From the NCBI GenBank assembly GCA_964590225.1, contig CAZPWS010000011.1, positions 4,136 through 68,135 of the forward strand: a stretch of 64,000 nt of DNA. Direction: 5' to 3'. Below are positions 15,589-60,728 of the stretch, piece by piece (position 1 is the first letter of the stretch; each line of letters opens with the position of its first letter). The notes beneath the pieces were generated by a model. The model saw nothing but the letters and a program-made list of their open reading frames with translations. It was not told the origin of the DNA and did not search any database. Origin of the DNA: an uncultured Fibrobacterota bacterium. Lineage in GTDB: Bacteria > Fibrobacterota > OXYB2-FULL-49-7 > JAEUSG01. The translations under genes and the position numbers were made by a program.

Positions 15589-15591
15589 ATT

Positions 15592-17253
15592 ATGTCTGAT
15601 TTTATTAGTGAAGCAATTAATGAAGATCTCCAGAGCGGAAGATTTACAAAAATACACACCCGTTTCCCACCTGAACCAAATGGTTACCTCCATATCGGTC
15701 ATGCAAAGGCCATCTGTATCGATTTTGGCCTCGCAGAAAAATTTGGGGGTAAAACAAACCTCCGTTTTGATGATACTAATCCGGTCAGAGAGGATGTTGA
15801 ATTCGTCGATGCCATAAAGGATGACATTCACTGGCTCGGTTTTGACTGGGAAGAAAGACTCTATTACGCCTCAGACTATTTCGACCAGATTTTTGAATAC
15901 GCTGTAACGCTTATCAGGAAAGGCAAAGCCTTCGTTTGCGACCTTTCGTCCGATCAAATCCGTGAATATAGAGGTACGCTCACAGAGCCAGGCAAAGAGT
16001 CCCCTTTTCGCAACCGAACAGTTGATGAAAATCTTGATCTTTTTTTAAGAATGAGAAACGGAGAATTTGCGGAAGGAACAAAAACGCTTCGGGCTAAAAT
16101 CGATATGGCATCGCCAAATATCAACCTACGCGATCCTGTAATGTATAGGATAATAAATACACCTCACCACAGAACAGGCACAAAGTGGTCTATTTATCCC
16201 ATGTATGATTTTGCACACGGCCAGAGCGATTCCATAGAGGGAATTACCCATTCCCTCTGCTCGCTCGAATACGAAGACCACCGCCCCTTATACGATTGGT
16301 ACATTAAAGAGCTTGGCATATTCCATACTCGCCAAATCGAATTTGCGAGGCTTAATCTCACTTATACAGTTATGAGCAAAAGAAAGCTAATGAAACTTGT
16401 TGAGAGCGGCGTTGTATCCGGCTGGGATGATCCACGGATGCCCACTCTCGCTGGTATGCGGCGCCGTGGCTATACTGCAGAATCTATAAAGAATTTCTGC
16501 GATAGAATTGGCGTGGCAAAACGGGATAGCACCGTTGATTTTGCTTTTCTTGAGCACTGTGTCCGCGAAGTACTTAACCGTGACTCTGCCCGCATGTTTG
16601 CTGTATTACGACCATTAAAAGTGGTGATAACAAATTATCCCGAAAATTATACCGAAGAATTTGACGCAATCAACAATCCTGAGAATCCTACAGACGGAAC
16701 ACGCAAGGTTCCCTTCTCCAGAGTACTTTATATTGAACAGGATGACTTTAGGGAGGCTCCTCCTCCAAAATATTACAGGCTTTCTCCTGGTAAAGAGGTA
16801 CGACTTCGCTATGCCTACTTTATCAAGTGCAACGAGGTTATTAAGGATGGCAATGGTAACATTATTGAAATCAGATGCACTTACGATCCCGCAACAAAAG
16901 GTGGCGAGTCGCCCGATGGACGAAAGGTAAAAAGCACAATTCACTGGGTGTCTGCACAACATGCCGCCAGTGCTGAAGTAAGACTTTACAGCGTTCTCTT
17001 TTCAAAGCCAAATCCGGAAGATGTGGCTGAAGGTGGTGATTTTATCGATAACATTAATCAAAATTCAATAGAAACTGTTAAAGAGTGTAAGATAGAACCT
17101 CTTCTTTCAAAAGTAAAACCAGGAACAAAAGTTCAGTTTGAGCGGATTGGTTACTTTTGTGCGGATACTGTAGATTCCAAAGAGGGAGCACCAGTGTTTA
17201 ATCGGATTGTGACACTAAAAGACACATGGGCTAAGATTGAAAAAATGGGTTGA
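15592..17253 (+). CDS. glnS: Glutaminyl-tRNA synthetase
   Basis: [17 protein letters not shown] (HIGH), VMSKRK (KMSKS) and a GlnRS-type anticodon-binding C-terminus. 553 aa. Confidence 0.9.
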
Positions 17254-28327: not shown

Positions 28328-30283
28328 ATGGCACTATTTAGCACTATGCTGCCAAAGGCAGCCCTTTCCACTCTTGTTGACCGTTTTCCGGATGGCCTGG
28401 CGATTTTTCTGCACGAAAACAATACCCCCATTTATGTTAATGACGCTTTCGCAGCCTTACTATGCCTATCAAAAGAAGCACTTCTAAGCGGCGACGCAAG
28501 GCTCCCCTTTGCAATACCGCAAAATGGAACCCAGCATATCGATTTTAGAAGTCCACTTCGAAGCATAACTCTTGACTGTAAGGTTTTTAACATTAAGCAT
28601 GAAAACTTCAATTTTAGGGCTATCACCATAAGGGATGTTACGGATGTCGTTTACAAGGAAAACATGCTGAAGGAAAAAGAGGAAAGACTCAGACTTGCTT
28701 TTCAGGGTGCACAAAACGGAATATGGGACTGGGACTTACGAACCGGCAAAATGCATTTTTCGCCTGAGTGGAAGATTATGATAGGTTGCGCGGAAAACGA
28801 AGTTTCAGACCATCCGGATGCATGGTTTAAACGAGTTCATGACATGGATATGCCGGTTCTTCAAAATGCCATACAGGAGCATCTCCGCGGTAAAACACAG
28901 CATTTCAAGTGTCAATACAGAATTCTCCACAAAGATTTCTCCTATAAATGGATGCTTTGCAGTGGCGCCGCAATTAACGGACCCGATAACCGACCGGCAC
29001 GGCTTACAGGTGTCCAAGTTGATATTACCTCACAAAAAGAAAATGAAACAAGGCTCAAGGAAGCACTTGATGACTTGCAATTAGCACTCACATCCGAAAG
29101 GCTCCTGCTTCAAGAGCTTGATCGAAAAAACAAGGAATTAACTGAGCTGTCCATTACTGATGGTTTAACTAAACTTTACAATCATAGATTTCTTCAGGAA
29201 AGATTTGATTTTGAATTCGGTAAAGCAAGACGCTATGGTCAGGTACTATCATGCCTTTTAATAGATATTGACCATTTTAAAAACATAAACGATACATACG
29301 GCCACCAGTTCGGCGATTGCGTACTACGAGATTTATCGCGACTACTCAAAGAAAATTCCCGCGAATCGGATATTTGTGGAAGATATGGAGGCGAAGAGTT
29401 TATGGTTGTATCGTCAATATCTATTGACGACGCGCTGAAATTCGCGCAAAAACTTCACGATGCTGTAGCCTCTTACCCATTTTCTGACGGTACAACAACT
29501 ATTAAGGTTACAATAAGTATCGGCGTTACAGATTATAAAAACGATATAAAAACAAAGCAGGAAATGATTGAGCGGGCAGACAACGCTCTTTATCAAGCCA
29601 AGCACGAAGGGCGTAACACCGTGCGACAATGGAAGGAAAGAAATGACAACGACGACAAAACTATGGACCCCGATGCAATAGAAGGTTTGCGTAACAGTTT
29701 TAACAACCTGACTGAAAAAATGCGTACAACCTACATAGAGTCAACAAACGCACTGGTTAATGCCATAGATGCGAAAGATCACTACACCATGGAACACTCG
29801 CAAAATGTCGCCAATTATGCTGTCGCTCTTGCGAAAGAAATTCACTTGCCAGATAAAACTATCGAGACCATAAAGAACGCCGCCCTACTGCATGATGTTG
29901 GTAAAATTGGAATAGCACAGGAAATACTTCTTAAAAACGGACCTCTTACAAAGGAAGAATTTGAAGTAATGAAACGGCATCCTGTAATTGGTGTCAATAT
30001 TCTTAAAGATGTAAAATTCCTTGAGAAGGAGTTGCCAATTATCCTGCACCATCACGAAAGATTTGATGGAAAAGGATATCCACACGGTCTCAAAGCGTAC
30101 GAAATACCTCTGGGGGCAAGAATTCTCGCTGTGGTGGATGCTTACGACGCAATGACTACAGACAGGCCATACCGAAAAGCGTTATCAAATGAAATTGCTA
30201 TTGAGGAGCTTAGGAAAGGGGCTGGCACCCAGTTTTCAGAAGAGCTAATTGATGCTTTCATAAGAATTATCCGAACTTCATAA
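28328..30283 (+). CDS. PAS-GGDEF-HD-GYP composite c-di-GMP turnover protein
   Basis: PAS-like region (WDWDLRTGKMHFSPEWK), intact GGDEF A-site (RYGGEEFMVV), and an HD-GYP domain (HSQNVANYAVALA ... LLHDVGKIG ... HHERFDGKGYP). Confidence 0.85.
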   Translation: MALFSTMLPKAALSTLVDRFPDGLAIFLHENNTPIYVNDAFAALLCLSKEALLSGDARLPFAIPQNGTQHIDFRSPLRSITLDCKVFNIKHENFNFRAITIRDVTDVVYKENMLKEKEERLRLAFQGAQNGIWDWDLRTGKMHFSPEWKIMIGCAENEVSDHPDAWFKRVHDMDMPVLQNAIQEHLRGKTQHFKCQYRILHKDFSYKWMLCSGAAINGPDNRPARLTGVQVDITSQKENETRLKEALDDLQLALTSERLLLQELDRKNKELTELSITDGLTKLYNHRFLQERFDFEFGKARRYGQVLSCLLIDIDHFKNINDTYGHQFGDCVLRDLSRLLKENSRESDICGRYGGEEFMVVSSISIDDALKFAQKLHDAVASYPFSDGTTTIKVTISIGVTDYKNDIKTKQEMIERADNALYQAKHEGRNTVRQWKERNDNDDKTMDPDAIEGLRNSFNNLTEKMRTTYIESTNALVNAIDAKDHYTMEHSQNVANYAVALAKEIHLPDKTIETIKNAALLHDVGKIGIAQEILLKNGPLTKEEFEVMKRHPVIGVNILKDVKFLEKELPIILHHHERFDGKGYPHGLKAYEIPLGARILAVVDAYDAMTTDRPYRKALSNEIAIEELRKGAGTQFSEELIDAFIRIIRTS

Positions 30284-31143
30284 TGTATATTACCAGTATG
30301 AAGAAGTTTTATTTGATATTGCCATTTCTTCTTTCTGTGATCGGGTGTTCCGGCAGGGGTAAGGAGCTAAAATTTTCCTTTGCGGTTCCCGATACTGTCC
30401 GATATAAAGTCCTTTCTCAGGCAAGCTCACGAACCACTACAGCTTCTTCCACAACTGCCCATTCAACAAGAATCGAAATGACTGTATCGTATTTTGTAAA
30501 AGAACAGCTTGCTAACGGCGACAAAAGGCTACAATTTTCATACGATGATATTAGTTACGAAAATTCACAGGCCGATAAGCATAATACCGATTCCATTATT
30601 AAGGAATTAAAAAGCACACCAATAACTGTAACAATGTCTCCATACGGGGATATTGCCGACGCTACTGGATACGAACAGATACCACGGTTTATGGCGGAAG
30701 ATTTTAACATTTTTACTCTCCTTCTTAAGGCTCTGCCCGTATTTCCTCGTTCGCCTGTACAACCGGGAGCGAAATGGGAAAGGGAACAGGAATATCCAAT
30801 CGAGAATGGCCTTATAAAAGGAAGAATGCTTGTATATAAAAGATTTACACTTATCGATTCTTCCGTGAATGAGAATCCCTTTCTTTCGCTTGTTTCAACA
30901 GACATTTCAATGCGATTTGATGTTCCTGATAATGAAAATTTCTCTATACAACGGGACGGTCAGGAAGAACTTGGCCTTAATGGCCGTGGCGAAATTCGTT
31001 TCGACAGCGACAGAGGCATGGTAACAGATGCAAGAGCGGCCGTATTCGGAAAAATGATAATTGGACTTAAGCATCCAATCACCAAAGAGTCCATTTTAAC
31101 AAAAGTGGAAATTGCTCAAAGTATCCAGGTCTATGAACCATGA
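30283..31143 (+). CDS. Lipoprotein (286 aa), function unknown. The real start is probably the internal ATG at 30298.
   Basis: MKKFYLILPFLLSVIGC has a signal peptide plus lipobox Cys. There is a 1 nt stop/start overlap with the upstream gene. Confidence 0.6.
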   Translation: MYITSMKKFYLILPFLLSVIGCSGRGKELKFSFAVPDTVRYKVLSQASSRTTTASSTTAHSTRIEMTVSYFVKEQLANGDKRLQFSYDDISYENSQADKHNTDSIIKELKSTPITVTMSPYGDIADATGYEQIPRFMAEDFNIFTLLLKALPVFPRSPVQPGAKWEREQEYPIENGLIKGRMLVYKRFTLIDSSVNENPFLSLVSTDISMRFDVPDNENFSIQRDGQEELGLNGRGEIRFDSDRGMVTDARAAVFGKMIIGLKHPITKESILTKVEIAQSIQVYEP

Positions 31144-31865
31144 AAACAAACACTATGGCTATTTCTACTATTGTAATTGTTTGTTTTCTTTTCCACTCCT
31201 TGCAAGCTATTAGCATAAGCGGCACACTGGAAAAAAACACTACATGGTCTTCCGCCGACAACCCTATTATTATTACGGGCAACATTGAAATTCCAGACTC
31301 GGTTGCACTAAAAATCAAGAAGGGAACGATAATTCGCTTCGACGGTTACTATCGTTTACTTGTTCGTGGTTCTTTAGAGGCTGATGGCGAGGCAGGCAGC
31401 GAAGTTGAATTTTCTTCAAATAAAGAGAAACCCTCTGCAAGCGACTGGGAAGGCATAATTTTCTACGGAGAAAAAAGCGGTGGTTACCTAAAGTATTGCA
31501 AGATTCGGCACGCATACAGAAATTTTGTTTGGAAATCTTCGCCCTTTATTCAGTCCTGCACCTTTATAATGAACAATTATGCGATATACTGTTCATATTC
31601 TAAATCTGCTAAGATTATTGACAACTCATTTACAAAAAATAACTTTGCTATCTATTGTGACTATTCAAGTCCGGTAATACAAAAAAACACTATTACCGAT
31701 AACTCTTACGGCATTTACTGTGTTCTCTCATCCGCGCCAATTGTTGGTGAAAATAGAATTGCGGCCAATACAGAGAAAGATATTTACATGGACGATAGTT
31801 TGGGGAAAAATGGTGCAGAAAATGTAAACAACCATGTTTGGGATTTGATGAAAGGTCTTTTTTAA
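31140..31865 (+). CDS. Exported right-handed parallel beta-helix repeat protein (241 aa)
   Basis: Signal peptide. Repeated PbH1-like units (NNYAIYCSYS / NNFAIYCDYS / NSYGIYCVLS). Overlaps the upstream stop (ATGA). Confidence 0.65.
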   Translation: MKTNTMAISTIVIVCFLFHSLQAISISGTLEKNTTWSSADNPIIITGNIEIPDSVALKIKKGTIIRFDGYYRLLVRGSLEADGEAGSEVEFSSNKEKPSASDWEGIIFYGEKSGGYLKYCKIRHAYRNFVWKSSPFIQSCTFIMNNYAIYCSYSKSAKIIDNSFTKNNFAIYCDYSSPVIQKNTITDNSYGIYCVLSSAPIVGENRIAANTEKDIYMDDSLGKNGAENVNNHVWDLMKGLF

Positions 31866-31867
31866 TT

Positions 31868-33073
31868 ATGGCAAAAACACACCCTGGATTCGATCAAGTA
31901 GCGAAAGGTTATCTTTTTCCCGAAATCGGTCGGCGTGTCAGAGCGTATGCTTCGGCAAATCCAAAAGCGAAGATAATGCGACTTGGCATCGGGGACACAA
32001 CACAACCACTACCTTCCATTGTTATAGCAGGGCTCCTTAACGGTGTTAATAAACTCGCAAAGATTGAAACTTATACCGGTTATCAGGACGACAGTTCCGG
32101 CATCCCATCTCTTAAAAATGCCCTTAAGACACGATATCAGAAATTAGGAGTAACCCTTGACCTTGACGATATCTTTGTTAGCGATGGAGCTAAGTCCGAT
32201 TCTGCCAATATCCAGTCGATATTCGATATAAGCAATATAGTGGCCTTTCAAGATCCGGCTTACCCTGTATATGTCGATAGCAACATAATGGCGGGCCGAA
32301 ATAAAAACAACTTCGTTTATATGCCTTGCTCAGAAGAAAACGGCTTTTTCCCTGCCATACCTAATGAAAAGGTTGACATTATTTACCTGTGTAGTCCCAA
32401 CAACCCAACGGGTGGAGTAGCAACCAAAGAACAGCTTAAAAGTTTTGTGAACTACGCTATTGAACAGAAAGCGGTTATTATTTTTGACGCTGCATACAGT
32501 GCATATATTTCCGATCCACTACTCCCCCGCTCAATTTATGAGATACCAGAGGCTAAAAAGTGTGCAATTGAAATAAACAGCTTTTCAAAAGAGGCAGGTT
32601 TCACAGGTGTCCGTTTGGGCTGGACAATTGTACCCAAGGCAATTGTGTGCGAAGATGGCGAAGAAGGAAAGCTGAACAGGCTTTGGACTAGAAGGCAAAA
32701 CACTATGTTCAATGGTGCATCTAATATAGTTCAAGACGGCGGCATAGCCGTTTTGTCCGATGCCGGACAAAAAGAGTGTAACGAAGTTATCGCTTACTAT
32801 ATGGAAAACGCAAAACTGATCCTTAATGGCGTAAAAGAAAAGGGGCTCGTTGCCTTTGGTGGTATAAACGCCCCATATATCTGGATGAAAACTCCAAATG
32901 GAATGGCATCGTGGGACTTCTTTGATAAACTATTGAACGAGGCTCATGTTGTCGGTACACCCGGTAGCGGTTTCGGCGCAAGCGGAGAGGGATATTTTCG
33001 TCTGAGTGCCTTTGGTATTAGGGAGAATGTTATTGCGGCAATTGACTCTATAAACAAAAATCTTAAATTATGA
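31868..33073 (+). CDS. dapL: LL-diaminopimelate aminotransferase
   Basis: AKGYLFPEIGRRV N-terminal hallmark of DapL and a fold-type I PLP aminotransferase (SFSKEAGFTGVRLGW carries the PLP Lys). The ORF track starts at 31838. The ATG at 31868 is 2 nt after the upstream stop and fits better. Confidence 0.8.
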   Translation: MAKTHPGFDQVAKGYLFPEIGRRVRAYASANPKAKIMRLGIGDTTQPLPSIVIAGLLNGVNKLAKIETYTGYQDDSSGIPSLKNALKTRYQKLGVTLDLDDIFVSDGAKSDSANIQSIFDISNIVAFQDPAYPVYVDSNIMAGRNKNNFVYMPCSEENGFFPAIPNEKVDIIYLCSPNNPTGGVATKEQLKSFVNYAIEQKAVIIFDAAYSAYISDPLLPRSIYEIPEAKKCAIEINSFSKEAGFTGVRLGWTIVPKAIVCEDGEEGKLNRLWTRRQNTMFNGASNIVQDGGIAVLSDAGQKECNEVIAYYMENAKLILNGVKEKGLVAFGGINAPYIWMKTPNGMASWDFFDKLLNEAHVVGTPGSGFGASGEGYFRLSAFGIRENVIAAIDSINKNLKL

Positions 33074-35680: not shown

Positions 35681-38404
35681 ATGCAGCAGTTATTTGCGCT
35701 ACTCTTTTTAATTTTCTCGTCTGTTATTCTCGGCGATAATGTTTCCGACTCTATGCTTTTATCGTACTTTGATGCATCTCTTTTGCCGGTAATGTTTATA
35801 CTTAACGCAATCCTACTGTTTATCGTATCTGCCTTTTTTATGACCTTAATAGATAGAGTTGACCGCGGCTACTTACTAATAGGCGTTCTTGTCAGCCACC
35901 TAATAATACTGTCTGCAGTAAAAGTTGCAATAACATTAAAAATATTCGTAGCCTGTCCATTTTTGTACTCTTATTCCTATTCATCTAAAATGATTTTATT
36001 TATGGTTTTCTGGACAGTTGTCAATGATATTATTGATGCACGGGATGCAAAAAGGCTGTTCCCACGAATAGCAGCAGGTGGCGTACTTGGTGGAATCACA
36101 ATCTCCTTTGTTGCGGCTATATTTGCCCCTAGCCTCGGCGCAGAAGGGCTTATGGTTGTATGGCTTGCAATTGTTAGCGCAGCTATTCCTCTCTCGTTCG
36201 CGATACATAAAAAATTCATGCCACATTTAAAGGCTACACGCGAGCCATCAACATCATCATCTCTTTTTCAAAGGCTAACAGACTTTCGTTTAATCCGCAA
36301 TGACAATCTGCTACGGCATATGGCGATTATCTATTTTCTTACCTTCATTCTCTTATACGCGAACGATTTTATATTTCTTTCAACACTTAAAGAAAATTTT
36401 CTTTCGGCGCGCAATAGCCTAATAGAAGCGATCGATCCATCGCTGATACTTGGCCTATTAAGTGGCGGCGATGCCGATGCACTGATCTTAAAAAAGGCAG
36501 TGCCAACTTTTCTTGGACTTTTTAAAGGAATAGCAAACACACTTACCTTGATAATTCAGTTTACAATAGCAGGTTTTATTCTCCGTAGTCTTGGAACCGT
36601 AAAAGCTATGCTTGTTATGCCAATTTGCCTCTTTTTTATTTATGGTTCAATGGTAGCGGTCAAGTTTCTTAATTTTCCAGATATTGCCCCACTAGGATAT
36701 CCTTTTTTCGGAAATCTTTTATTCACAACTGTACTATTTGGTCTTACCGCGAGAATCGCGCTTTTCGACGCGATTTATTCACCCAATTTCCAAATTTTCT
36801 TTTCTGCACTAAATAAAGACATTAGGGGAAGAGGAAAAATCCTTATCGAAGGCCTTATAAAACCATTCGCCATTCTTGCAGCCGGACTTTTTATACTTAC
36901 ATTTTATGAATCCCACCCTACTGGTTCGCTTATCTCTCTATTTGTTTTTTCGTTTGTACTAATCGTGATATGTCTTTTAATAAAAAAATCATATACAAAG
37001 AGCATTGCGAAATCGCTCGGAGACGGTAGAGAGGAAAGACTTGAAACCCTGCTGCACTCCGACAAAGAGAAAGAAGAAAACGCCATCCCCTTTCTTCAGG
37101 ACTTTATTGAGGACACCGATACAGAAATAGCTGAATTCGCGACTTTCACGCTAGCTTCTTTGAGTGGAGATGAACCCCCAAAGCTTCTATGGGGACGCTT
37201 CTCTCGAGCGAGTGAGTCTGAAAAAATACACTTTCTTCGTGTCATATTACCGCTAAAAGATATGCGATATATACGGCTCTATGAAGCTGGTCTTTTTAGC
37301 ATCTCGGGCGATGTAACGGCAACATCACTTGAGGCTATTATTAAATTAGGAATACCAATAGATACTTCTCGCATATCCAGATTTGTCAACAGTAATCATG
37401 ACGGAGTGAGAGCGGCAGCGGCAGTTGCACTATGGAAGAATGGTTCTGCAAGCGAAAAACAGATGCTGCAAACTGTTTTGCGTGAGGTGCTATTTGCATC
37501 CGATACATCTTATCTTAAATTTGGTATTAGAGCACTTGCAGCCTCCTCTGATTCTTCGCTCTGGCCCTTGCTTGAAATGGGATTAAATAGAGCGCTACTG
37601 CTCGGTACAGACTATACGAGAATAGCAATTGAGGCCGCCTCCTCCATAAACGATATCAGGGCATGTAGGTGGTTAATGACACAAATACCTCTTTTAGAAG
37701 GAACCGTTCTGGATCTTATTGATAAACATCTTTCACTGTATTTGCATGAGTATCCTGAACTTGTTGAAGAGGCTTTTAATAGTCCATGCGCGGTTCTGCG
37801 AATACATACCGTCAAGGCCCTTGTCAACAGGAGTAAAGACAATGACGAAGCAATTACAACTCTACTTGAGGATCTGCTTGAAACTGAAGTACAACTTATG
37901 TTTCGCTATGCGTCGTACACATCCATACTGCTGCCAGAAAGCGATGGTGAAAAACTTTTATCTGATGCTGTTAACGAGCGAAAAATATCCACCAACTTAT
38001 CGCACTTTCTAATGATATGCGCGGCACTCTATCCAAATTCGGGACTAAAAGCTGCGGCGAATAGAATTAAAAGCATAAATAAACATGTAAGAGCCTCAGC
38101 CCTTGAGCTGCTTGATAATACAACATCAATCCGTCCTGTTAAGCTTTTTCTAAAGCTTATCGACAAACCGGACCATTCGTGGATACGAGATACGCTTCGC
38201 AAGGAGTGGCGAGAGGAAACGCCAACGCGCCTTTCCGTTATCAAAACATTATCTGAAGAGTCTGATGCATGGATACGAATGCTCGCTATTTACGCTGCAT
38301 TGGAACACGACAGAGCTTTTGGAAACACAGAATTTCTCGATGCAATTGACCTAAACAGGGTAAGCGCTCTTGCACTTATGGCGGAGGTAATTGAAGATGG
38401 CTGA
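35681..38404 (+). CDS. TLC/NTT-like (ATP/ADP-translocase family) polytopic membrane domain fused to a ~450 aa cytoplasmic HEAT-repeat array
   Basis: The N-terminal ~440 aa has 10-12 predicted TM helices. WTVVNDIIDARDAKRLFPRIAAGGVLGGI parallels the TLC signature WQFANQIT..AEAKRFY..FG.LANL. The C-terminus carries repeated HEAT/PBS-lyase-like helices (VRAAAAVALWK..., LRIHTVKALVN..., VRASALELLDN..., IRMLAIYAALE...). Confidence 0.65.
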   Translation: MQQLFALLFLIFSSVILGDNVSDSMLLSYFDASLLPVMFILNAILLFIVSAFFMTLIDRVDRGYLLIGVLVSHLIILSAVKVAITLKIFVACPFLYSYSYSSKMILFMVFWTVVNDIIDARDAKRLFPRIAAGGVLGGITISFVAAIFAPSLGAEGLMVVWLAIVSAAIPLSFAIHKKFMPHLKATREPSTSSSLFQRLTDFRLIRNDNLLRHMAIIYFLTFILLYANDFIFLSTLKENFLSARNSLIEAIDPSLILGLLSGGDADALILKKAVPTFLGLFKGIANTLTLIIQFTIAGFILRSLGTVKAMLVMPICLFFIYGSMVAVKFLNFPDIAPLGYPFFGNLLFTTVLFGLTARIALFDAIYSPNFQIFFSALNKDIRGRGKILIEGLIKPFAILAAGLFILTFYESHPTGSLISLFVFSFVLIVICLLIKKSYTKSIAKSLGDGREERLETLLHSDKEKEENAIPFLQDFIEDTDTEIAEFATFTLASLSGDEPPKLLWGRFSRASESEKIHFLRVILPLKDMRYIRLYEAGLFSISGDVTATSLEAIIKLGIPIDTSRISRFVNSNHDGVRAAAAVALWKNGSASEKQMLQTVLREVLFASDTSYLKFGIRALAASSDSSLWPLLEMGLNRALLLGTDYTRIAIEAASSINDIRACRWLMTQIPLLEGTVLDLIDKHLSLYLHEYPELVEEAFNSPCAVLRIHTVKALVNRSKDNDEAITTLLEDLLETEVQLMFRYASYTSILLPESDGEKLLSDAVNERKISTNLSHFLMICAALYPNSGLKAAANRIKSINKHVRASALELLDNTTSIRPVKLFLKLIDKPDHSWIRDTLRKEWREETPTRLSVIKTLSEESDAWIRMLAIYAALEHDRAFGNTEFLDAIDLNRVSALALMAEVIEDG

Positions 38405-38861
38405 TCAAAAGATGGATGCCTTGCGGTTTCTTGAAAATGTAATTTTCCTGCGAAAACATACGCTTTTTTCCGGCTTACAAACTGGAGAACTGAGAGCCCT
38501 TGCCCTCATTGCAAAAGAAATACCCTTGATAAGTGGTGAATACGCAGTAAGAGAAGGAGATGCCGGAGATTCTTTTTTTATTGTTAAGTCCGGTACTCTT
38601 CTTGTTGTTAAGGATGAGGGAAAAATTACTCTAGCCCGCATCGAGCAAGGGGGCTGTTTTGGAGAAATGGCATTATTTGAAGATGGCACACTTCGTTCAG
38701 CAGATGTCAGGGCAGATGGGCCAAGCATACTTCTTTCCTTTCAACGGGAAGACTTTTTTGATGTGCTAAGCCGACAACCGAGAATTGCAATTGAGTTGCT
38801 TGTACTGTTCAGTCGCCGTATCAGAGAACTCAACGAAAAGCTATCTGCGGAGAAATTATAA
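38391..38861 (+). CDS. Stand-alone cyclic-nucleotide-binding (cNMP/CAP-effector) domain protein, 156 aa
   Basis: Canonical cNMP cassette FGEMALFEDGTLRSADVRA. It overlaps the upstream gene by 14 nt and the downstream gene by 1 nt. Confidence 0.7.
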   Translation: MKMADQKMDALRFLENVIFLRKHTLFSGLQTGELRALALIAKEIPLISGEYAVREGDAGDSFFIVKSGTLLVVKDEGKITLARIEQGGCFGEMALFEDGTLRSADVRADGPSILLSFQREDFFDVLSRQPRIAIELLVLFSRRIRELNEKLSAEKL

Positions 38862-40291
38862 TGGGTAAAACTGGATTTGCTACTCTATTTATAGTAGCTA
38901 CAATGTTGCTTAACTGTGTAGCAACGCGACAGGTTTCGATAACGGTTCGAATGATGCCAGAACAGGAAAAATATTTTAAAGAGAACATTCTTTCTCCTTT
39001 CGAAAAGAAGCATAAATGCCGTATTACGGTTAATTCCTACGATCACCCAGCATCATTAGATACAATGCTTATGGATGGTGCAAAAAATACTATTCTTGTT
39101 AAAGTTCCCTTTGAAGCCACCAGGCATGTCGCCGAAACCAAGCTATTAAAACCTATCGACTCTATAGTTAATACTAAGGAATTTACAGAAATTAAAAACC
39201 GTTATTTTCTGATGCAACTCGCGGCTTTTGATGGCCAAACATATTACTTTCCGAGAAAATTTGAAACAAGAATAGTTGTAGCATTAAAAAGTAAAATAAA
39301 CGAAGCTATTAGGATGTGGGGCGGACATCGAGAAGCAATTGATTCGGTACTTAAGACATACAACGGATACGGTCTTCCGAGCGGATATACTTTGGAAGCT
39401 AATCCCGATGAATGGGACTATTTCGATGTATTTGTCGCTGGCTGGTACTGGGCAAGATCTGACTCAACAAAGTTTATGCCACGAATTGCGCATCGAAGCA
39501 AAAGATACTCAGGCACATGCCAAAGACTTGTTGATAGGATTATATCGCTTGGAGGGAACAGTAGCTCAATAATGAAAATGGAAGGACCAGAAACCGATGG
39601 CTCCTTTATATGGGAAGCGCTCTATGCACGAGAAAAAATTTATCATCCATCAATGATCAAAGATGGATGGTCGGGAGTGGACATATGGAATGGTTTTAAA
39701 AAAGGCGAAGTATATCTTGCTTTCATGACACAACTTGATGCCTTTTTTATACACGGCGATGACGCAGGAAAACAGGCTGGTTATATTGCGAATCCTGACG
39801 ATCTTACTTTTGCTGTTATGCCTAAAGGTGTCTCGCTTGAATTATCATCGGAAGGAAAGCCCCTGTTTGTTGGAACAAACTCCGTATCAACTGGTGGGTG
39901 GTGGTGGGGTATCCCTGTAAATTCCCCCGACTATAAACTCTCTTTACTCCTTGCAGAGTGGATACTCGCTTCTGCCAATCAAACAACCGAAGCAAGCAAT
40001 TTTGGAATGATACCAGTGCGAAAAGATATCTTGAGTGACATCGGGTTGCTGTTTGGAAGAACATGGATTGCTGATATCTATAACACTTCACTCAAACAAC
40101 TCGTTTATAACCGTTATAATACAGTTCCTGTTCATGATAAATATGCTGAGGTAGAATCAATTTATCTTGACGCTTTCGACGACATAGTAATAAAGGGAAA
40201 CAACGGTCCAACAAACAGTGGCATGATTTCATACATTGGGAAAATATTGGAACCTTACCGATCTAAGGCATATATCATTTCAAACAAGTAA
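38861..40291 (+). CDS. Periplasmic solute-binding protein (SBP_bac_1-like) lipoprotein, with no adjacent ABC permease or ATPase
   Basis: Signal peptide with LLNC lipobox-like Cys. 476 aa. Aromatic blocks WDYFDVFVAGWYWA and GGWWWGIP are typical of family-1 sugar-binding proteins. Confidence 0.55.
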   Translation: MGKTGFATLFIVATMLLNCVATRQVSITVRMMPEQEKYFKENILSPFEKKHKCRITVNSYDHPASLDTMLMDGAKNTILVKVPFEATRHVAETKLLKPIDSIVNTKEFTEIKNRYFLMQLAAFDGQTYYFPRKFETRIVVALKSKINEAIRMWGGHREAIDSVLKTYNGYGLPSGYTLEANPDEWDYFDVFVAGWYWARSDSTKFMPRIAHRSKRYSGTCQRLVDRIISLGGNSSSIMKMEGPETDGSFIWEALYAREKIYHPSMIKDGWSGVDIWNGFKKGEVYLAFMTQLDAFFIHGDDAGKQAGYIANPDDLTFAVMPKGVSLELSSEGKPLFVGTNSVSTGGWWWGIPVNSPDYKLSLLLAEWILASANQTTEASNFGMIPVRKDILSDIGLLFGRTWIADIYNTSLKQLVYNRYNTVPVHDKYAEVESIYLDAFDDIVIKGNNGPTNSGMISYIGKILEPYRSKAYIISNK

Positions 40292-54794: not shown

Positions 54795-54825
54795 AAAAAA
54801 AAATGGGGTCTTTGGTCAAGACCCC
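54795..54825 (-). terminator. Perfect 8 bp GC-rich hairpin plus a 9-nt T-run on the minus strand, between truA and rimP
   Basis: Plus strand shows AAAAAAAAAT-GGGGTCTT-tggtc-AAGACCCC. On the minus strand this reads as stem GGGGTCTT/AAGACCCC with a 5 nt loop followed by UUUUUUUUU. Confidence 0.5.
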
Positions 54826-54889: not shown

Positions 54890-55615
54890 TTATGGATAAT
54901 CAACCCGTACCAGAGTTAAACCGTGAGCAGGAGCGCAAAATGTCTTTTTCCCCTCGTCTCCATTTAAAAGCCGCTCCAAAATCATGGGGTCTGCCCTCCC
55001 CTTGCCAATCGCAAGTAGTGTCCCTACAATAATTCTAACCATTTTATGGAGGAACCTGTTAGCGGTAATGTTAAAAAAAAGCCTATCCCCATCTGTAATG
55101 ATGCTTAGTTCATAAACGGTACATAAGGTTGACTTTTTCCCCGGATCCACCGATAATTGTTTGAAGTCATGCGTTCCGAGAATAGATTGAGCGGCATTTC
55201 GCATTAGCTCAATATCTATGCCACACATTACCGTATAGCATTTTCGTCGATCGATTGCTACCTTTCGTCTTGAAACTGTATATGTATAGGAACGAGCGAG
55301 GGCAGAGTATCGTGCATGGAAGCTCTCATCGACTTCCGCCACACTCTTTATGGCTATTCCCTCCCTAAGTATCCCGTTCAGAGACTGCATAAGCTGGTGC
55401 ATAGTCATTAACAGCTTATTAACCTTAAAATTGGCAACTTGCCCAATCGCGTGAACACCGGTATCTGTTCTGCCGGCACCAATTATTGTAACACGCTCCC
55501 TTAAGATGATTTCAAGAGCTTTTTCAATTGATTCCTGCACGGTATCCGCATCTTTTTGAATTTGCCATCCGTGATACAAGGAACCGTCATACTCAATATC
55601 GAGTCTTATATTCAT
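54890..55615 (-). CDS. truA: tRNA pseudouridine(38-40) synthase
   Basis: GAGRTDTGVHA catalytic Asp motif. 241 aa. Confidence 0.85.
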   Translation of the reverse strand: MNIRLDIEYDGSLYHGWQIQKDADTVQESIEKALEIILRERVTIIGAGRTDTGVHAIGQVANFKVNKLLMTMHQLMQSLNGILREGIAIKSVAEVDESFHARYSALARSYTYTVSRRKVAIDRRKCYTVMCGIDIELMRNAAQSILGTHDFKQLSVDPGKKSTLCTVYELSIITDGDRLFFNITANRFLHKMVRIIVGTLLAIGKGRADPMILERLLNGDEGKKTFCAPAHGLTLVRVDYP

Positions 55616-55624
55616 TCAATAAGC

Positions 55625-56656
55625 TTACTTCGTTACTTTTACGCAGAGCTGACCACAAGCCGCGTCAATATCCCTGCCCCTGCTCTTTCTAACTGTAACT
55701 ATTACAGGACTTCTTAACAATGGAGCCATAAACAAATCAACCTCTTTTTCTGTTGGTGGATGAAATTCACTTTTTCTATATGAATCGTTATAAGGAATCA
55801 GATTTATTTTTGATGGTAACCGGGAAAGCCTTTTAGCAAGAGTTGCCGCGTCACTTGGAGAGCAATTTACCCCCCCAATCATCACATATTCAAAAGTAAT
55901 CTTTTCTCCTGTTATTCTCGCATAATTTGCAGCATGTTTTAAAAGAGTATCCATATCAAGCTCATATGCGTGAGGTATCAGAGTCTTTCTAATTTCATCA
56001 TTGGGGGCGTGCAATGAAACAGCAAGCCCAACGCCTCCCCCCTCTTTTGCGAGCCGTTCGAAACCCTCAATAATTCCCACCGTGGAGACCGTTATTCGCT
56101 TTGGGCTTATGCAAAAGGCTTCTTCAGAAACAACAACTTTTATTGAAGCCAAAACCGCATCGAGATTGTCTAATGGTTCACCCATTCCCATATAGACTAT
56201 ATTTGATATTCTCTCTTTCGTCAATAATCTTTTTGCTGCAATTATCTGGTTAAGTATTTCCCCTGTTGATAGGTTTCTTTTAAAACCCATCGATGCAGTT
56301 GCGCAAAGGCGACAACCCCGGGCACAGCCAACCTGAGTTGAAATACAAAGAGTAGTCCTCTTTTCGTCTGGAATAATTACACTCTCTACCGCAAGCCCAT
56401 CCCTAAGACGGAGAAGAAATTTTTTTGCACCATCGCTGGAAACCTGCAAATTCTCAATAACCGGTTCGTCGATATCAAATGAATCCGACAATGTCAATTT
56501 GAGTGCTGAATTAAAATTTGTTATGGACTCAAAATCAGAAACACACTTATTATAAAGCCATGTAAAAAGCTGGCGCGAACGAAATGCTTTTTCTCCTTTG
56601 GTGACAAACCACTCCTCAAGTTCAGCAAGCGGCAAGTCCTTTACAGAAAGCCTCAT
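55625..56656 (-). CDS. rlmN: Radical-SAM 23S rRNA/tRNA adenine-C2 methyltransferase RlmN/Cfr family
   Basis: STQVGCARGCRLCATA radical-SAM cluster motif in an RlmN context and a C-terminal Cys. 343 aa. Confidence 0.8.
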   Translation of the reverse strand: MRLSVKDLPLAELEEWFVTKGEKAFRSRQLFTWLYNKCVSDFESITNFNSALKLTLSDSFDIDEPVIENLQVSSDGAKKFLLRLRDGLAVESVIIPDEKRTTLCISTQVGCARGCRLCATASMGFKRNLSTGEILNQIIAAKRLLTKERISNIVYMGMGEPLDNLDAVLASIKVVVSEEAFCISPKRITVSTVGIIEGFERLAKEGGGVGLAVSLHAPNDEIRKTLIPHAYELDMDTLLKHAANYARITGEKITFEYVMIGGVNCSPSDAATLAKRLSRLPSKINLIPYNDSYRKSEFHPPTEKEVDLFMAPLLRSPVIVTVRKSRGRDIDAACGQLCVKVTK

Positions 56657-57747
56657 TTTTTTTTCTGAAGCGGCACAATATCCGTTCCACCATACATTCC
56701 AATGTCATTCACCGTGCCATCATTATCGTTGTACGCTCTTCCTTTTTCACCAGCATCAATAAGGCGTGAATAGCGGGAGAGCTGCCACGGCTTGTGCGGT
56801 TTCTTCCATTCATTTTCCCTTTTTACCGAAGCGGGAATTGACTCAACAATTGTGCGAGAAAGCCGCTTATTTGCCACATCAGAATCAATTGTATCGGTGG
56901 CGACAGTAACATCCCTTCTTATACTATCAAGATGGCTATTCGAACCCATAAAAACCGGATCAATAAAAATGTTTTCACCGTCGTCGCACGCATCCTTTCT
57001 ATGATTTATCTTCCGTATAAGTCCATACTCTGGCGGACAGTCGATAAGATGTCCGTCGAAATTGCCCCAGAATGCGTTATTTTTGACAACAAAGCGGCTC
57101 AACTTGTCACCAATAATGGCCGCGAAATTATAAGCAATTATATTGCTTGACAATAACGGATTAGAATTTTTTATTGTTACCGCAGCAGCCCGATTGTATA
57201 GCACATTGTTATTTCTTATTTGCGCTATACTGCCATTTTCAACTACAATTCCCTGATGATTTGCCACTATAAGATTATTCCTAATAATTGGAGAAGAATT
57301 CAGCAGTGTTACTGCTCTAAATGCACCTCTGATATCGGTATAGGCGACTGTTCCGGTACTCGCTCTATCATCTTCAAATATAATTCCATACCAAACTGGT
57401 TCATTGGCGGCAGAGTCGGAAATATCAGGACCAATCGAAATCCTGTTATTACTTGCGCCTACGCAATCAAGCCTTCCCTTGACTATAATTGCCGGCAATT
57501 CGCTTTCCTTTGCAATTGGATGGTCAACTGCTACCGTGCATAAAGTGGATTTTTGAATACGAATAACTGTTCCGGGCATAACAGTAACTGTAGTTTTATA
57601 GGGTATCAATACTGTGCCCGTAATCGTATATGGCCCTTTTTGAGGCTGCAATAACAGATCGTTATCTATCACACCACATAATTTTACTTCTGCCCTCACA
57701 GTAGCGAAAATGAACAGCAAAAACGCAATAGCGGCAAAACGGTTCAT
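56653..57747 (-). CDS. Exported right-handed parallel beta-helix protein (364 aa), paralogous at its N-terminus to the 31140-31865 product
   Basis: Signal peptide. PbH1-like repeats (NNLIVANHQGIVVENGSIAQIRNNNVLYNRAAAVTIKNSNPLLSSNIIAYN). The shared N-terminal module is PYTITGTVLIPYKTTVTVMPGTVIRI versus NPIIITGNIEIPDSVALKIKKGTIIRF. Confidence 0.65.
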   Translation of the reverse strand: MNRFAAIAFLLFIFATVRAEVKLCGVIDNDLLLQPQKGPYTITGTVLIPYKTTVTVMPGTVIRIQKSTLCTVAVDHPIAKESELPAIIVKGRLDCVGASNNRISIGPDISDSAANEPVWYGIIFEDDRASTGTVAYTDIRGAFRAVTLLNSSPIIRNNLIVANHQGIVVENGSIAQIRNNNVLYNRAAAVTIKNSNPLLSSNIIAYNFAAIIGDKLSRFVVKNNAFWGNFDGHLIDCPPEYGLIRKINHRKDACDDGENIFIDPVFMGSNSHLDSIRRDVTVATDTIDSDVANKRLSRTIVESIPASVKRENEWKKPHKPWQLSRYSRLIDAGEKGRAYNDNDGTVNDIGMYGGTDIVPLQKKK

Positions 57748-58701
57748 CTAATCCTCCACAGATATATCATTGAGCCTAAACATTGAGGCAGCAAGAATGG
57801 CTGCCACTTTTTTTGCATTTACAGATATCTTTGCGGTCTCTTTAGTTTTGCCCTCAAGCAAAGTTTTTTCATCAAAATTCACCACTTCCATCTGAGCAAG
57901 TTCTGTCATGAAATCACCATTAGAAAACAGCTTATCAGCACCTTCACCAAGCTTTGTAAGCGATAATTCACACATGCCATCTTTCTCACCCTTGGCGACC
58001 TTCACTGCATCGTAAAGAACCCGCAGTACGGTGATTGCCTCAACAGACAATGGCTGACTGGCTTCTATAGAAGAATCCGCAATTTCTCCCCGCTTATAAC
58101 TGGCAAATAGCTCGATGGCCGATTTATCCGGAACCTGAATACGGTTATTACCGATAGCTATTAGTTTATGTCTTTCAATCTCCTTTAAAGCGGCAAGAAC
58201 ACGGTCGTGCGGTAGGCTCATTATTTCCATTATTTCGTTTTTTGCAAATTTTAGATCAAGTTCATCGTGGCCTGATAACGAATCTTCCTTTTTCCTGTTT
58301 ATCATAAGAGTCAACATAGTGGCAATGTTTGCCACAGTGTCCGAATCGAGGGAGGCTCGCACCTTTCTATCGGTATCCCTAAGGCGAGTGCATAATATCC
58401 TAATGATTGCCAAAAACCACTCGGGCATCTGGTGTGATCGCTTCTCAAACTCCTCAACAGAGATAACCGAAGCCTCAACCTCATCAATTGCTTCTACCGT
58501 TGCAGAACGGGAGCGGCCATCAAGCATGGACATTTCACCAACTATGCCACCCTTGCCAATTTCACACAAGTCAATTCGTTGTCCCTTTTCCGTCCTGTAA
58601 ACTTTCACCTTACCGCGGTGTAATAAATACATCTCACGACTTCTATCATTTTCTCTGAAAAGAACTGAACCGCTTACAAAAATTTTATTTACAGGTGCCA
58701 T
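57748..58701 (-). CDS. cNMP-binding domain protein (317 aa) with an uncharacterised C-terminal helical domain
   Basis: N-terminal cNMP cassette (LCEIGKGGIVGEMSMLDGRSRSATVEA). Its stop abuts the start of the downstream beta-helix gene (57747/57748). Confidence 0.7.
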   Translation of the reverse strand: MAPVNKIFVSGSVLFRENDRSREMYLLHRGKVKVYRTEKGQRIDLCEIGKGGIVGEMSMLDGRSRSATVEAIDEVEASVISVEEFEKRSHQMPEWFLAIIRILCTRLRDTDRKVRASLDSDTVANIATMLTLMINRKKEDSLSGHDELDLKFAKNEIMEIMSLPHDRVLAALKEIERHKLIAIGNNRIQVPDKSAIELFASYKRGEIADSSIEASQPLSVEAITVLRVLYDAVKVAKGEKDGMCELSLTKLGEGADKLFSNGDFMTELAQMEVVNFDEKTLLEGKTKETAKISVNAKKVAAILAASMFRLNDISVED

Positions 58702-58767
58702 ACTATCTGTAAAATTAAGGCATTAGCGCATAAGTTTGCAAGTTTCACCTGAAATATCTGATTATAT

Positions 58768-60342
58768 TTGTTAAATATGCTTCCATTTCCCCCAATATCC
58801 TTCGCATATGTAGAAACTCACTTTAGAAAACGCCCCCTCCCCTCTTTCCTGTACAGAAAAGAGCCAGAAATCCTCTTTGATACCCCTTCCCGACTTGAAC
58901 CAGGCAAAAAACTTCCGGCCATGCTACTAATAAAAGACGCTAATCTCTTCCCTATTGAATTAATAAATATTACAGCAGCAATAGGACTAATAGAACAACA
59001 CCGAATATTTTTTAAGGAGTTTGTGCCGGAGCAAAAAAAAATCAACTCCAAAATTTACTTCCAGACAATGGAAATTCCGCTGCCCGTTGATTACTCTGGC
59101 CAGCTACATATAAATTTCAAGCTCGATTACCGGATAGGAAATTCTTTGCGATTTGTTTTGAATGATAATATTCCCAGCTTACTCCATGCACCATGCTCGC
59201 TTTTTATTGCAAACACCCCCCTTCCCGTGCCTTATGGCTGGATTACCGGCGATATGCACACACATTCGATATTTACAAATGACGAAGTTGAATATGGTGC
59301 GCCAATTGAAGTGATGCCCATGATGGCAAAAGCGATGGGTTTTTCTTTTGCTGCTTTACTCGACCACAGTTACGATCTTGACAATAAAAACCCATTTTCT
59401 GAAAAAGATTCTTTTTATTTACAAAAGCAATTCGCAAATAAACTTTCGGACGACACTTTCGCTCTTTTTTCGGGCGAAGAGGTAAGTCTTATTAACTCAA
59501 AAGGCAAGACAGTTCACGCAGGTGTTATAGAACCGTACTCATTGATAAATGGTTATAGAGACTCAGGGCGTACTTTTTCTACAAAAAATGATGCAAGAAT
59601 AGATGATCTTTCGCAAAAGAGCCAAGGTAAAATCATTTTTGCCACCCATCCTTGCCATTCTCCAGGTCTTTTTGAACGGATTCTCTTGAACCGTGGTTCA
59701 TGGAGCAGAAGTGATATCGATAATGTCAGTCACATTCAATTTATGAATGGAGCAATTGATACCTCCTTTTTTAAAGGTCGAGTGCTTTGGATAAAATCTC
59801 TTTTGAGAGGTAAAAAACTGTTTGCCGTCGCGGGAAGCGACGCGCATGGCGACTTTTCACAAACCCGAAGGATCGGCTTGCCGTTTATAAACGCAAGGAA
59901 AGATAACTCTCATAACTTTGGAATAAGCAGAACTGTCATTCCTTCAAAGATCAATAAAAACGATATACTTGATGCAATTAAAGAAGGAAGAGCAGTAATA
60001 TCAAATGGACCATTTCTATCTCTCCTTTTTAAACAGGAAAACCATCAGATTGAAACCGGACAAACATTTAGTGGAGAAGGTATTTTTAAAATAACTGCTA
60101 TCTCGACCAGTGAATTTGGAGCCATCACCGCCATCAAGCTATACCACGGCATTATTGGCACAAAGCGCGAAGAATTAATTTCAGAATGGAAACCCGAACC
60201 AAATATATTTTCAATGGATTGCGAATTTGCATTTGTTTCAAAAGAACATGGATATACAAGAGCTGAGATATATACAGGAAAAGGGCTAAACAGCATTACT
60301 GCTGGATACGCTGCAACTAACCCAATATGGAATGTGGAATGA
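58768..60342 (+). CDS. PHP-domain (polymerase/histidinol-phosphatase-like) metal-dependent phosphoesterase, 524 aa
   Basis: PHP motif series GDMHTHS ... ATHPCHSPG ... AGSDAHG. Confidence 0.6.
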   Translation: MLNMLPFPPISFAYVETHFRKRPLPSFLYRKEPEILFDTPSRLEPGKKLPAMLLIKDANLFPIELINITAAIGLIEQHRIFFKEFVPEQKKINSKIYFQTMEIPLPVDYSGQLHINFKLDYRIGNSLRFVLNDNIPSLLHAPCSLFIANTPLPVPYGWITGDMHTHSIFTNDEVEYGAPIEVMPMMAKAMGFSFAALLDHSYDLDNKNPFSEKDSFYLQKQFANKLSDDTFALFSGEEVSLINSKGKTVHAGVIEPYSLINGYRDSGRTFSTKNDARIDDLSQKSQGKIIFATHPCHSPGLFERILLNRGSWSRSDIDNVSHIQFMNGAIDTSFFKGRVLWIKSLLRGKKLFAVAGSDAHGDFSQTRRIGLPFINARKDNSHNFGISRTVIPSKINKNDILDAIKEGRAVISNGPFLSLLFKQENHQIETGQTFSGEGIFKITAISTSEFGAITAIKLYHGIIGTKREELISEWKPEPNIFSMDCEFAFVSKEHGYTRAEIYTGKGLNSITAGYAATNPIWNVE

Positions 60343-60728
60343 TATACGGGATAGGCACAGACATAATAGAAGTTGATAGATTAAAGAAAAGTCTGCAAAG
60401 AACTACCGGCCTGATCCACCGTATTTTTTCAGCAATAGAAATTAGTCATTGTACCAGCAATAATCAGGAGAGAAACCTAAATTTCGAAAAACTCTCTGCC
60501 CGATTTGCGGCAAAAGAGGCTTTCCTTAAAGCTTGCGGAACGGGGCTTCGCGGCGAATACAAACTCACCGAAATCAGTATTACAAATGATGAACTTGGTA
60601 AGCCGGCTATAACGCTTACAGGTAAATCCAAGAAAGAATTTGAAACAAACATCAACGGGAAAATATTTGTGAGCCTCTCCCACCTTCAGTCCATTGCACA
60701 AGCTGTTGTAATAATCGAAAAAAATTAA
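60327..60728 (+). CDS. acpS: Holo-[acyl-carrier-protein] synthase
   Basis: MIYGIGTDIIEVDRL start and a conserved AcpS fold signature (FAAKEAFLKACGTG). 133 aa. Confidence 0.8.
   Translation: MECGMIYGIGTDIIEVDRLKKSLQRTTGLIHRIFSAIEISHCTSNNQERNLNFEKLSARFAAKEAFLKACGTGLRGEYKLTEISITNDELGKPAITLTGKSKKEFETNINGKIFVSLSHLQSIAQAVVIIEKN

Follow-up and report, generated by a model that had tools for sequence, protein, structure and literature searches.

A putative cyclic-nucleotide-binding Crp-like regulator and its conserved exported beta-helix partner in an uncultured Fibrobacterota bacterium

A 64,000-nucleotide stretch of DNA from an uncultured Fibrobacterota bacterium (contig CAZPWS010000011.1; this whole stretch is referred to as the window) carries a gene for a 317-aa Crp-like protein with a cyclic nucleoside monophosphate (cNMP)-binding domain (57748-58701, minus strand), which is followed on the same strand by a gene for an exported beta-helix protein and then by rlmN and truA. 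On balance, we favour the view that this protein is a cNMP-responsive transcription factor of the Crp/Fnr type with an extended architecture, encoded by the first gene of the beta-helix/rlmN/truA unit and exerting local control over its own operon and, ancestrally, over a divergent one; within this proposal the ligand, the DNA binding, the regulatory targets and the co-transcription are what we infer. The conserved partner of the regulator is the downstream exported beta-helix protein. A preliminary description of the locus had suggested a different partner, namely a PHP-family hydrolase encoded divergently from the regulator, with which the latter would form a receptor/hydrolase pair; the comparison of related loci does not bear this out.

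Domain architecture of the regulator

Residues 1-92 of the regulator (58426-58701) correspond to the cNMP-binding beta-roll, in which PF00027 matches residues 8-87 (E 6.1e-20; 71.4 bits against a cutoff of 27.5). The phosphate-binding cassette (G55-E56 ... R65-S66-A67-T68) is complete, and G55, E56, R65, S66, A67 and T68 are all invariant in the regulator family, which comprises 11 full-length sequences from Fibrobacterota and Raymondbacteria metagenome-assembled genomes (MAGs) or metagenomic contigs. The cassette (GE...RSAT) aligns with E72/R82/S83 of Escherichia coli CRP (BLASTP) and with the cassette of Sinorhizobium Clr. Since it is both complete and family-invariant, a cyclic mononucleotide is the best candidate for the ligand, most likely cAMP (or cGMP). 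Binding of cyclic di-GMP (c-di-GMP), as in Clp-like proteins, was considered and rejected by inference, because the canonical cNMP cassette is intact.

The preliminary description had left the C-terminal ~190 aa without a recognisable effector domain and had set the protein apart from ordinary Crp/Fnr regulators. Alignments with Clr, CAP and CRP place it, rather, in the Crp/Fnr type: the match to Clr and CAP remains collinear up to and including the helix-turn-helix (HTH) domain, and what falls outside the Crp fold is confined to the final ~120 aa, which explains the apparent orphan effector domain. The NCBIfam CRP model covers residues 10-185 (model positions 30-205 of 214), and a profile of the 11-member family matches Clr (7pza) with E 5e-22 over residues 5-189 (Clr 34-219) and also E. 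coli CAP over residues 6-188. BLASTP aligns the regulator collinearly with E. coli CRP over residues 8-190 (E 1e-15). According to the CRP/Clr alignments and an AlphaFold2 (AF2) model, the beta-roll is followed by a presumed dimerisation and signal-transmitting C-helix (residues ~93-118; 58348-58425). The Clr/CRP alignments and a weak HTH_Crp_2 match then point to a first winged HTH of the Crp type (residues ~119-203; 58093-58347). In the AF2 model, a long helix spans residues 94-140, with low confidence at 103-111, and residues 147-203 have the helix-strand pattern typical of a winged HTH. The recognition helix of this domain reads H165-D166-R167-V168 ... A170, against R180-E181-T-V ... R185 in CRP, with D166 and V168 conserved in the family and H165 in most members.

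The same order of a cNMP domain with a GE...RSA cassette, a C-helix and a Crp-type winged HTH is found in classical Crp/Fnr proteins (E. coli CRP/CAP, Sinorhizobium Clr 7pza, Mycobacterium CRP and GlxR). The regulator differs from these in being ~100-120 aa longer through an added C-terminal domain, and it falls far under all NCBIfam equivalog cutoffs (60 bits against 266 for CRP). At 317 aa, with ~120 aa extra after the HTH, it lies outside the 200-250 aa of two-domain Crp/Fnr proteins, and it is for this reason regarded as an extended rather than a classical member.

With moderate confidence, and on the basis of structure models, the added family-specific domain (residues ~204-317; 57751-58092) can be assigned as a second winged helix. 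In a Foldseek search of PDB entries with the full-length regulator model (pLDDT, the predicted local distance difference test score, of 72), the first-ranked match was Bd2879 of Bdellovibrio bacteriovorus (9sfa_A; E 7e-16, 336 alignment columns), a putative cyclic-nucleotide-binding transcription factor that served as CASP16 target T1298 (PDB 9sfa) and that outranks all two-domain Crp proteins in this search. Structure prediction on the C-terminal domain alone, a check proposed in the preliminary description, also returned winged helices, those of CprK, CRP and Bd2879 (probability 0.85-0.96), at E-values that are non-significant. Bd2879 is the best structural match for the full-length model and for the isolated domain.

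Bd2879 consists of a cNMP-binding domain (NBD), two winged HTH domains (HTH1 and HTH2) and a zinc-finger tail (PMC12750041). Its dimer has a crossover C-helix; the models of the regulator are those of a monomer. The regulator shares the domain order NBD, first winged HTH and second winged HTH as predicted, with 18-19% identity in the structural alignment, and its phosphate cradle has the canonical R-S where Bd2879 has T65/S66 (PMC12750041). It does not have the disordered C-terminal zinc-finger tail of Bd2879, ending ~4 residues past the last modelled helix with no Cys-rich tail, and no sequence similarity between the two second winged helices was detectable by profile search or phmmer. As both this sequence homology and the tail are absent, we file the regulator as a lineage-specific member of the extended Crp superfamily and not as a Bd2879 orthologue.

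Sequence searches with the C-terminal ~120 aa gave nothing in Pfam at E <= 1 and, with phmmer against 1.84 billion representatives, only the query itself and two repetitive, spurious matches. A profile of the domain found nothing among PDB sequences at E <= 10, and phmmer with residues 116-317 returned a marginal match to the CAP HTH only, and not 9sfa. An origin of the second winged helix by internal duplication of the first was also considered and was not detected (hhalign probability 0.7%). If the assignment is right, the Bd2879-type architecture of a cNMP domain with two winged helices, so far represented by one crystal structure, would also occur in an unrelated lineage of the Fibrobacterota-Chlorobiota-Bacteroidota (FCB) group.

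The beta-helix partner and its conserved gene order

Downstream of the regulator, on the minus strand, lie the gene for the 364-aa exported right-handed parallel beta-helix protein (56653-57747), rlmN for the 23S rRNA/tRNA A2503 radical-SAM methyltransferase (55625-56656; TIGR00048, 376.4 bits against a cutoff of 290) and truA (54890-55615; TIGR00071, 184.2 bits against 142.85), which closes the apparent transcription unit. The gaps between these four genes are 0, -4 and 9 nt. Both tight junctions of the preliminary description were read directly: the regulator gene ends exactly where the beta-helix gene begins (TAG contiguous with ATG), and the beta-helix gene overlaps rlmN by 4 nt (ATGA). 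Its domain assignments (cNMP_binding, Beta_helix, RlmN, TruA and PHP-type) were likewise all confirmed by Pfam/NCBIfam. Between truA and rimP, a strong, intrinsic-terminator-like hairpin with an 8-bp stem (GGGGTCTTGACCAAAGACCCC, then a T run; 54805-54825, minus strand) sets the regulator-beta-helix-rlmN-truA unit apart from the rimP-nusA-infB operon, and no hairpin-type signal comparable to it occurs between the four genes of the unit. From the gaps and the hairpin, co-transcription of the regulator gene through truA is plausible.

The N-terminus of the beta-helix protein is signal-peptide-like (MNRFAAIAFLLFIFATVRA, with the boundary before EV). The protein resembles NosD-like and right-handed parallel beta-helix proteins in its detected repeats (PF13229, 47.8 bits; PF05048, 36.2 bits) and its predicted export. 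The PF05048 match reflects shared repeats; with 16.4 bits for TIGR04247 against a cutoff of 300, the protein is no NosD orthologue, and this identity was ruled out. No nos genes were seen among the scanned window ORFs (open reading frames) of >= 150 aa. As far as its sequence tells, it is a generic PF13229 protein, belonging to a small, lineage-restricted family with 5 matches in our search.

In order to follow the gene order across relatives, nine related loci from Fibrobacterota/Raymondbacteria MAGs or metagenomic contigs were compared, with gene identities confirmed by tblastn. The long beta-helix gene directly follows the regulator gene in 8/8 loci with downstream DNA, down to 39% identity; these comprise the window, L063/L064 (73% identity), L005 (70%), L067 (55%), L065 (53%), L001 (52%), L007 (46%) and L002 (39%). 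This conserved adjacency upholds the link between regulator and exported beta-helix protein that had been drawn from the window, and the layout is more than chance packing. Further downstream, rlmN follows the long beta-helix gene in 5/6 loci, the exception being L007. On the other side of the regulator, PHP-acpS is found in divergent orientation in the window and in L063/L064 only. The regulator genes of L001, L002, L007, L065, L066 and L067 face, in its place, an operon that encodes a DUF6263-like lipoprotein together with a short beta-helix protein and an aminotransferase.

One may object that such clustering carries no functional meaning, and that the regulator acts globally, as a Crp-like factor whose targets are elsewhere, and happens to lie in a compact housekeeping region. 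Indeed, rlmN, truA and dapL are housekeeping genes within these units, and the surroundings (rimP-nusA-infB, topA, acpS) are of the same kind. Set against this, the regulator gene and the long beta-helix gene have stayed adjacent through at least two rearrangements, and their two families, both small, occur in one and the same lineage only. A beta-helix paralogue is moreover found in the ancestral divergent operon, and we regard meaningless clustering as unlikely.

The divergent operon of the relatives is also present in the window, 25 kb from the regulator gene. It comprises the genes for the DUF6263-like lipoprotein (30283-31143, plus strand; 41% identity to L007 by tblastn), the short exported beta-helix protein (31140-31865, plus strand; 60%) and the LL-diaminopimelate (LL-DAP) aminotransferase DapL (31838-33073, plus strand; 63%; TIGR03542, 534 bits). 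It lies directly behind the gene for a 651-aa PAS-GGDEF-HD-GYP protein (28328-30283, plus strand; GGDEF E 8e-44, HD_5 E 3e-38), at a spacing of 0-17 nt, as read at the junction. In this genome, the operon thus appears to have moved from the neighbourhood of a cNMP regulator to that of a c-di-GMP enzyme. The head-to-head arrangement of regulator and lipoprotein operon, kept in six lineages, is most likely the ancestral one. The short beta-helix protein, which measures 235-240 aa in relatives and is predicted to be exported, is distantly paralogous to the long one, with 24-25% identity between the two.

A more far-reaching reading is that the tandem-winged-helix receptor, the two beta-helix paralogues and the DUF6263-like lipoprotein constitute a cNMP-controlled envelope or surface module restricted to Fibrobacterota/Raymondbacteria, which in this genome has been split, with half of it placed behind the PAS-GGDEF-HD-GYP gene and rewired to c-di-GMP-linked control. 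We consider this reading doubtful; if it were true, the module might serve adhesion or polysaccharide handling.

A further question is whether the regulator binds DNA at all. Its winged helices could mediate protein contacts, making it a cNMP-gated adaptor that acts post-translationally, for example on the export, maturation or partners of the beta-helix protein. This is quite unlikely, since the collinear homology with DNA-binding Crp proteins extends through the HTH, and the recognition helix retains D166 and V168 across the family and H165 in most members. Furthermore, neither a signal peptide nor a membrane segment is present in the receptor, and direct contact with the beta-helix protein once the latter has been exported, as predicted, is therefore unlikely. 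Finally, a gene lying head to head with another operon, as in the ancestral layout, is what one typically sees for local transcription factors.

The divergent PHP hydrolase and acpS

Across the divergent intergenic region (58702-58776, as read from the sequence) lies the gene for a 521-aa CehA/McbA-type PHP metallohydrolase (58777-60342, plus strand), followed by acpS for a 129-aa holo-acyl carrier protein (holo-ACP) synthase (60339-60728, plus strand; TIGR00516 and PF01648). ORF positions and strands were as given in the preliminary description, in which the PHP ORF spans 58768-60342, and PHP and acpS are divergent from the regulator. The shared, divergent spacer stands as well, while its length of 66 nt does not: public gene calls put the PHP start at ATG 58777 (58768 in the ORF list), which makes the region 75 nt long, and the acpS start at 60339 (60327 in the ORF list), which yields a 4-nt PHP/acpS overlap.

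The PHP protein matches NF038032 over residues 157-521 (94.1 bits against a cutoff of 80) and has the same invariant HxH, DH, E, H, H and DxH residues as CehA/McbA; H161/H163, D196-H197, E235, H247, H291 and D355/H357 are invariant in 21 PHP homologues. The protein is probably an active enzyme, as it retains these metal-binding His/Asp residues. It differs from CehA/McbA in an extra conserved N-terminal domain of ~155 aa, which has no Pfam match, and no PDB sequence matched the protein at E <= 1. CehA and McbA are carbaryl hydrolases. The gene contexts described below, with acpS and GT2 genes, suggest a substrate other than the carbaryl type. An identity as the histidinol-phosphatase HisJ, raised earlier as a possibility, was discarded in favour of the CehA/McbA type assigned by NF038032: no HisJ model is found among the NCBIfam matches at E <= 0.1, and Pfam gives a faint PHP_C match only.

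The PHP family is far wider than that of the regulator, with > 550 homologues in our search against 11. The 120 listed PHP homologues are ~520-580 aa long, cover nearly the whole query and come from Raymondbacteria, Bacteroidota, KSB1, Zixibacteria and Calditrichota. In Raymondbacteria, infB, nusA, rimP and a WYL regulator gene lie on one strand, with PHP-acpS divergent, and L075 again has a WYL regulator divergent from PHP-acpS; PHP is followed by acpS in L063, L068 and L075. In Bacteroidota, KSB1 and Calditrichota, the PHP gene closes a cluster of GT2 glycosyltransferase genes. Among the inspected loci elsewhere, with their acpS/WYL or GT2 neighbours, no PHP homologue lies beside a cNMP gene.

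PHP-acpS is hence the older conserved pair, and the stable partner of PHP in the clade is acpS. The pair is kept in Fibrobacterota/Raymondbacteria relatives, often opposite a WYL-domain regulator. It can only be guessed that the PHP enzyme is tied to AcpS chemistry, for example by removing the 3',5'-ADP by-product. In the window, rimP, truA, rlmN, the beta-helix gene and the regulator gene lie on one strand with PHP-acpS divergent, and the regulator block consequently now sits where relatives carry the WYL regulator. With this slot filled by the regulator block, and with the lipoprotein operon relocated, the PHP adjacency is a lineage-specific rearrangement and the hydrolase a recent, incidental neighbour. 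The divergent neighbour of a gene in one genome can therefore be the product of recent rearrangement.

These data also weigh on the receptor/hydrolase pair, in which PHP, as a phosphodiesterase for cyclic nucleotides, would determine the signal that the cNMP protein senses. The two genes are indeed divergent across 75 nt in the window and are likewise neighbours in L063 and L064, and the metal-binding residues of PHP are intact. However, six more distant lineages possess the regulator family without PHP as its neighbour, and the PHP family extends far beyond that of its supposed receptor. In addition, the PHP homologues inspected elsewhere adjoin acpS and WYL genes or stand at the ends of GT2 clusters, none of them having a cNMP gene as neighbour, and the CehA/McbA type is not a known class of cNMP phosphodiesterase. 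We hence consider such a pair very improbable.

Promoter candidates and the proposed control

The upstream regions of the regulator gene were compared in the window (58702-58776), L001 (2990-3091), L063 (3058-3116), L065 (1866-2008) and L067 (1745-1841). On the regulator side of the window, a -35-like TTGCAAA (58735-58741) and a -10-like TAATTTT (58711-58717) are separated by a 17-nt spacer, and TTGC(C/A)AA-N17-19-TAATTTT recurs upstream of the regulator gene in all five loci. The position of this putative element would fit the regulator as the first gene of the unit, and since it ends ~10 nt before the regulator ATG, the leader would be very short. A TATATTTG box (58763-58770), which resembles the Bacteroidetes-type TAnnTTTG element, precedes the PHP start at ATG 58777 by 6 nt. 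Together, these promoter-like elements suggest FCB-type promoters and near-leaderless mRNAs without Shine-Dalgarno sequences.

A palindrome, TTTCACCTGAAA (58743-58754), adjoins the -35-like element of the regulator, and look-alikes occur upstream of the orthologous promoters in L067 (TTTCATGAAA) and L001 (TTTCAGGGAAGAAA). The pattern TTTCA-N0-4-TGAAA is found in ~3 loci and occurs 3 times in the window, where 1.4 occurrences are expected. As the palindrome is not enriched, we treat it as a lead only.

In the mechanism that we propose, binding of the nucleotide to the beta-roll would reposition the winged helices of a dimer, which would then bind the short promoter region. The regulator would thereby control its own operon (regulator, long beta-helix and rlmN) and, ancestrally, also the divergent lipoprotein/short beta-helix/dapL operon, so that the production of two envelope or surface beta-helix proteins would be tied to the cNMP level.

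Several observations weigh against this proposal. The HTH_Crp_2 (PF13545) match of the regulator, at 15.9 bits (E 0.013), is below the gathering score of 27; the domain does stand in the precomputed annotation of four full-length family members (P0003, P0004, P0009 and P0007-like hits). The base-contacting R180/E181/R185 of CRP are replaced by H/D/A; owing to these changes, the CRP box TGTGA-N6-TCACA is not expected, and DNA binding, if any, would have a specificity different from that of CRP. The second winged helix was assigned with a best Foldseek E-value of 0.14 for the domain alone, and both structure models were built from 10-11-sequence alignments and reach a pLDDT of just 71-72. No conserved operator was found in a search for inverted repeats and shared k-mers in 8 upstream regions, and no adenylate/guanylate cyclase gene is present among the window ORFs of >= 150 aa. 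The case for co-transcription comes from gene spacing only, and the conserved adjacency with the housekeeping gene rlmN shows that adjacency here does not always mean shared function.

The locus would amount to an ordinary, lineage-specific Crp-family regulon, and long-standing open questions are untouched by this result. It does provide a concrete candidate regulon for cNMP signalling in uncultured Fibrobacterota, with two exported beta-helix proteins and a lipoprotein; our literature search found no description of cyclic-nucleotide signalling or Crp in Fibrobacterota.

Two further observations were made in the window. A second, stand-alone cNMP-binding protein of 156 aa (38391-38861, plus strand; PF00027, E 3e-19) is encoded by a gene wedged, with overlapping junctions, between those for a 907-aa HEAT-repeat-like protein (35681-38404) and an extracellular solute-binding protein (38861-40291). 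Furthermore, tandem genes for class-I Glu/Gln-type aminoacyl-tRNA synthetases lie 3 nt apart at 14113-17253 (plus strand), one product being similar to glutamyl-tRNA synthetase (GluRS-like), with Anticodon_2, and the other to glutaminyl-tRNA synthetase (GlnRS-like), with tRNA-synt_1c_C.

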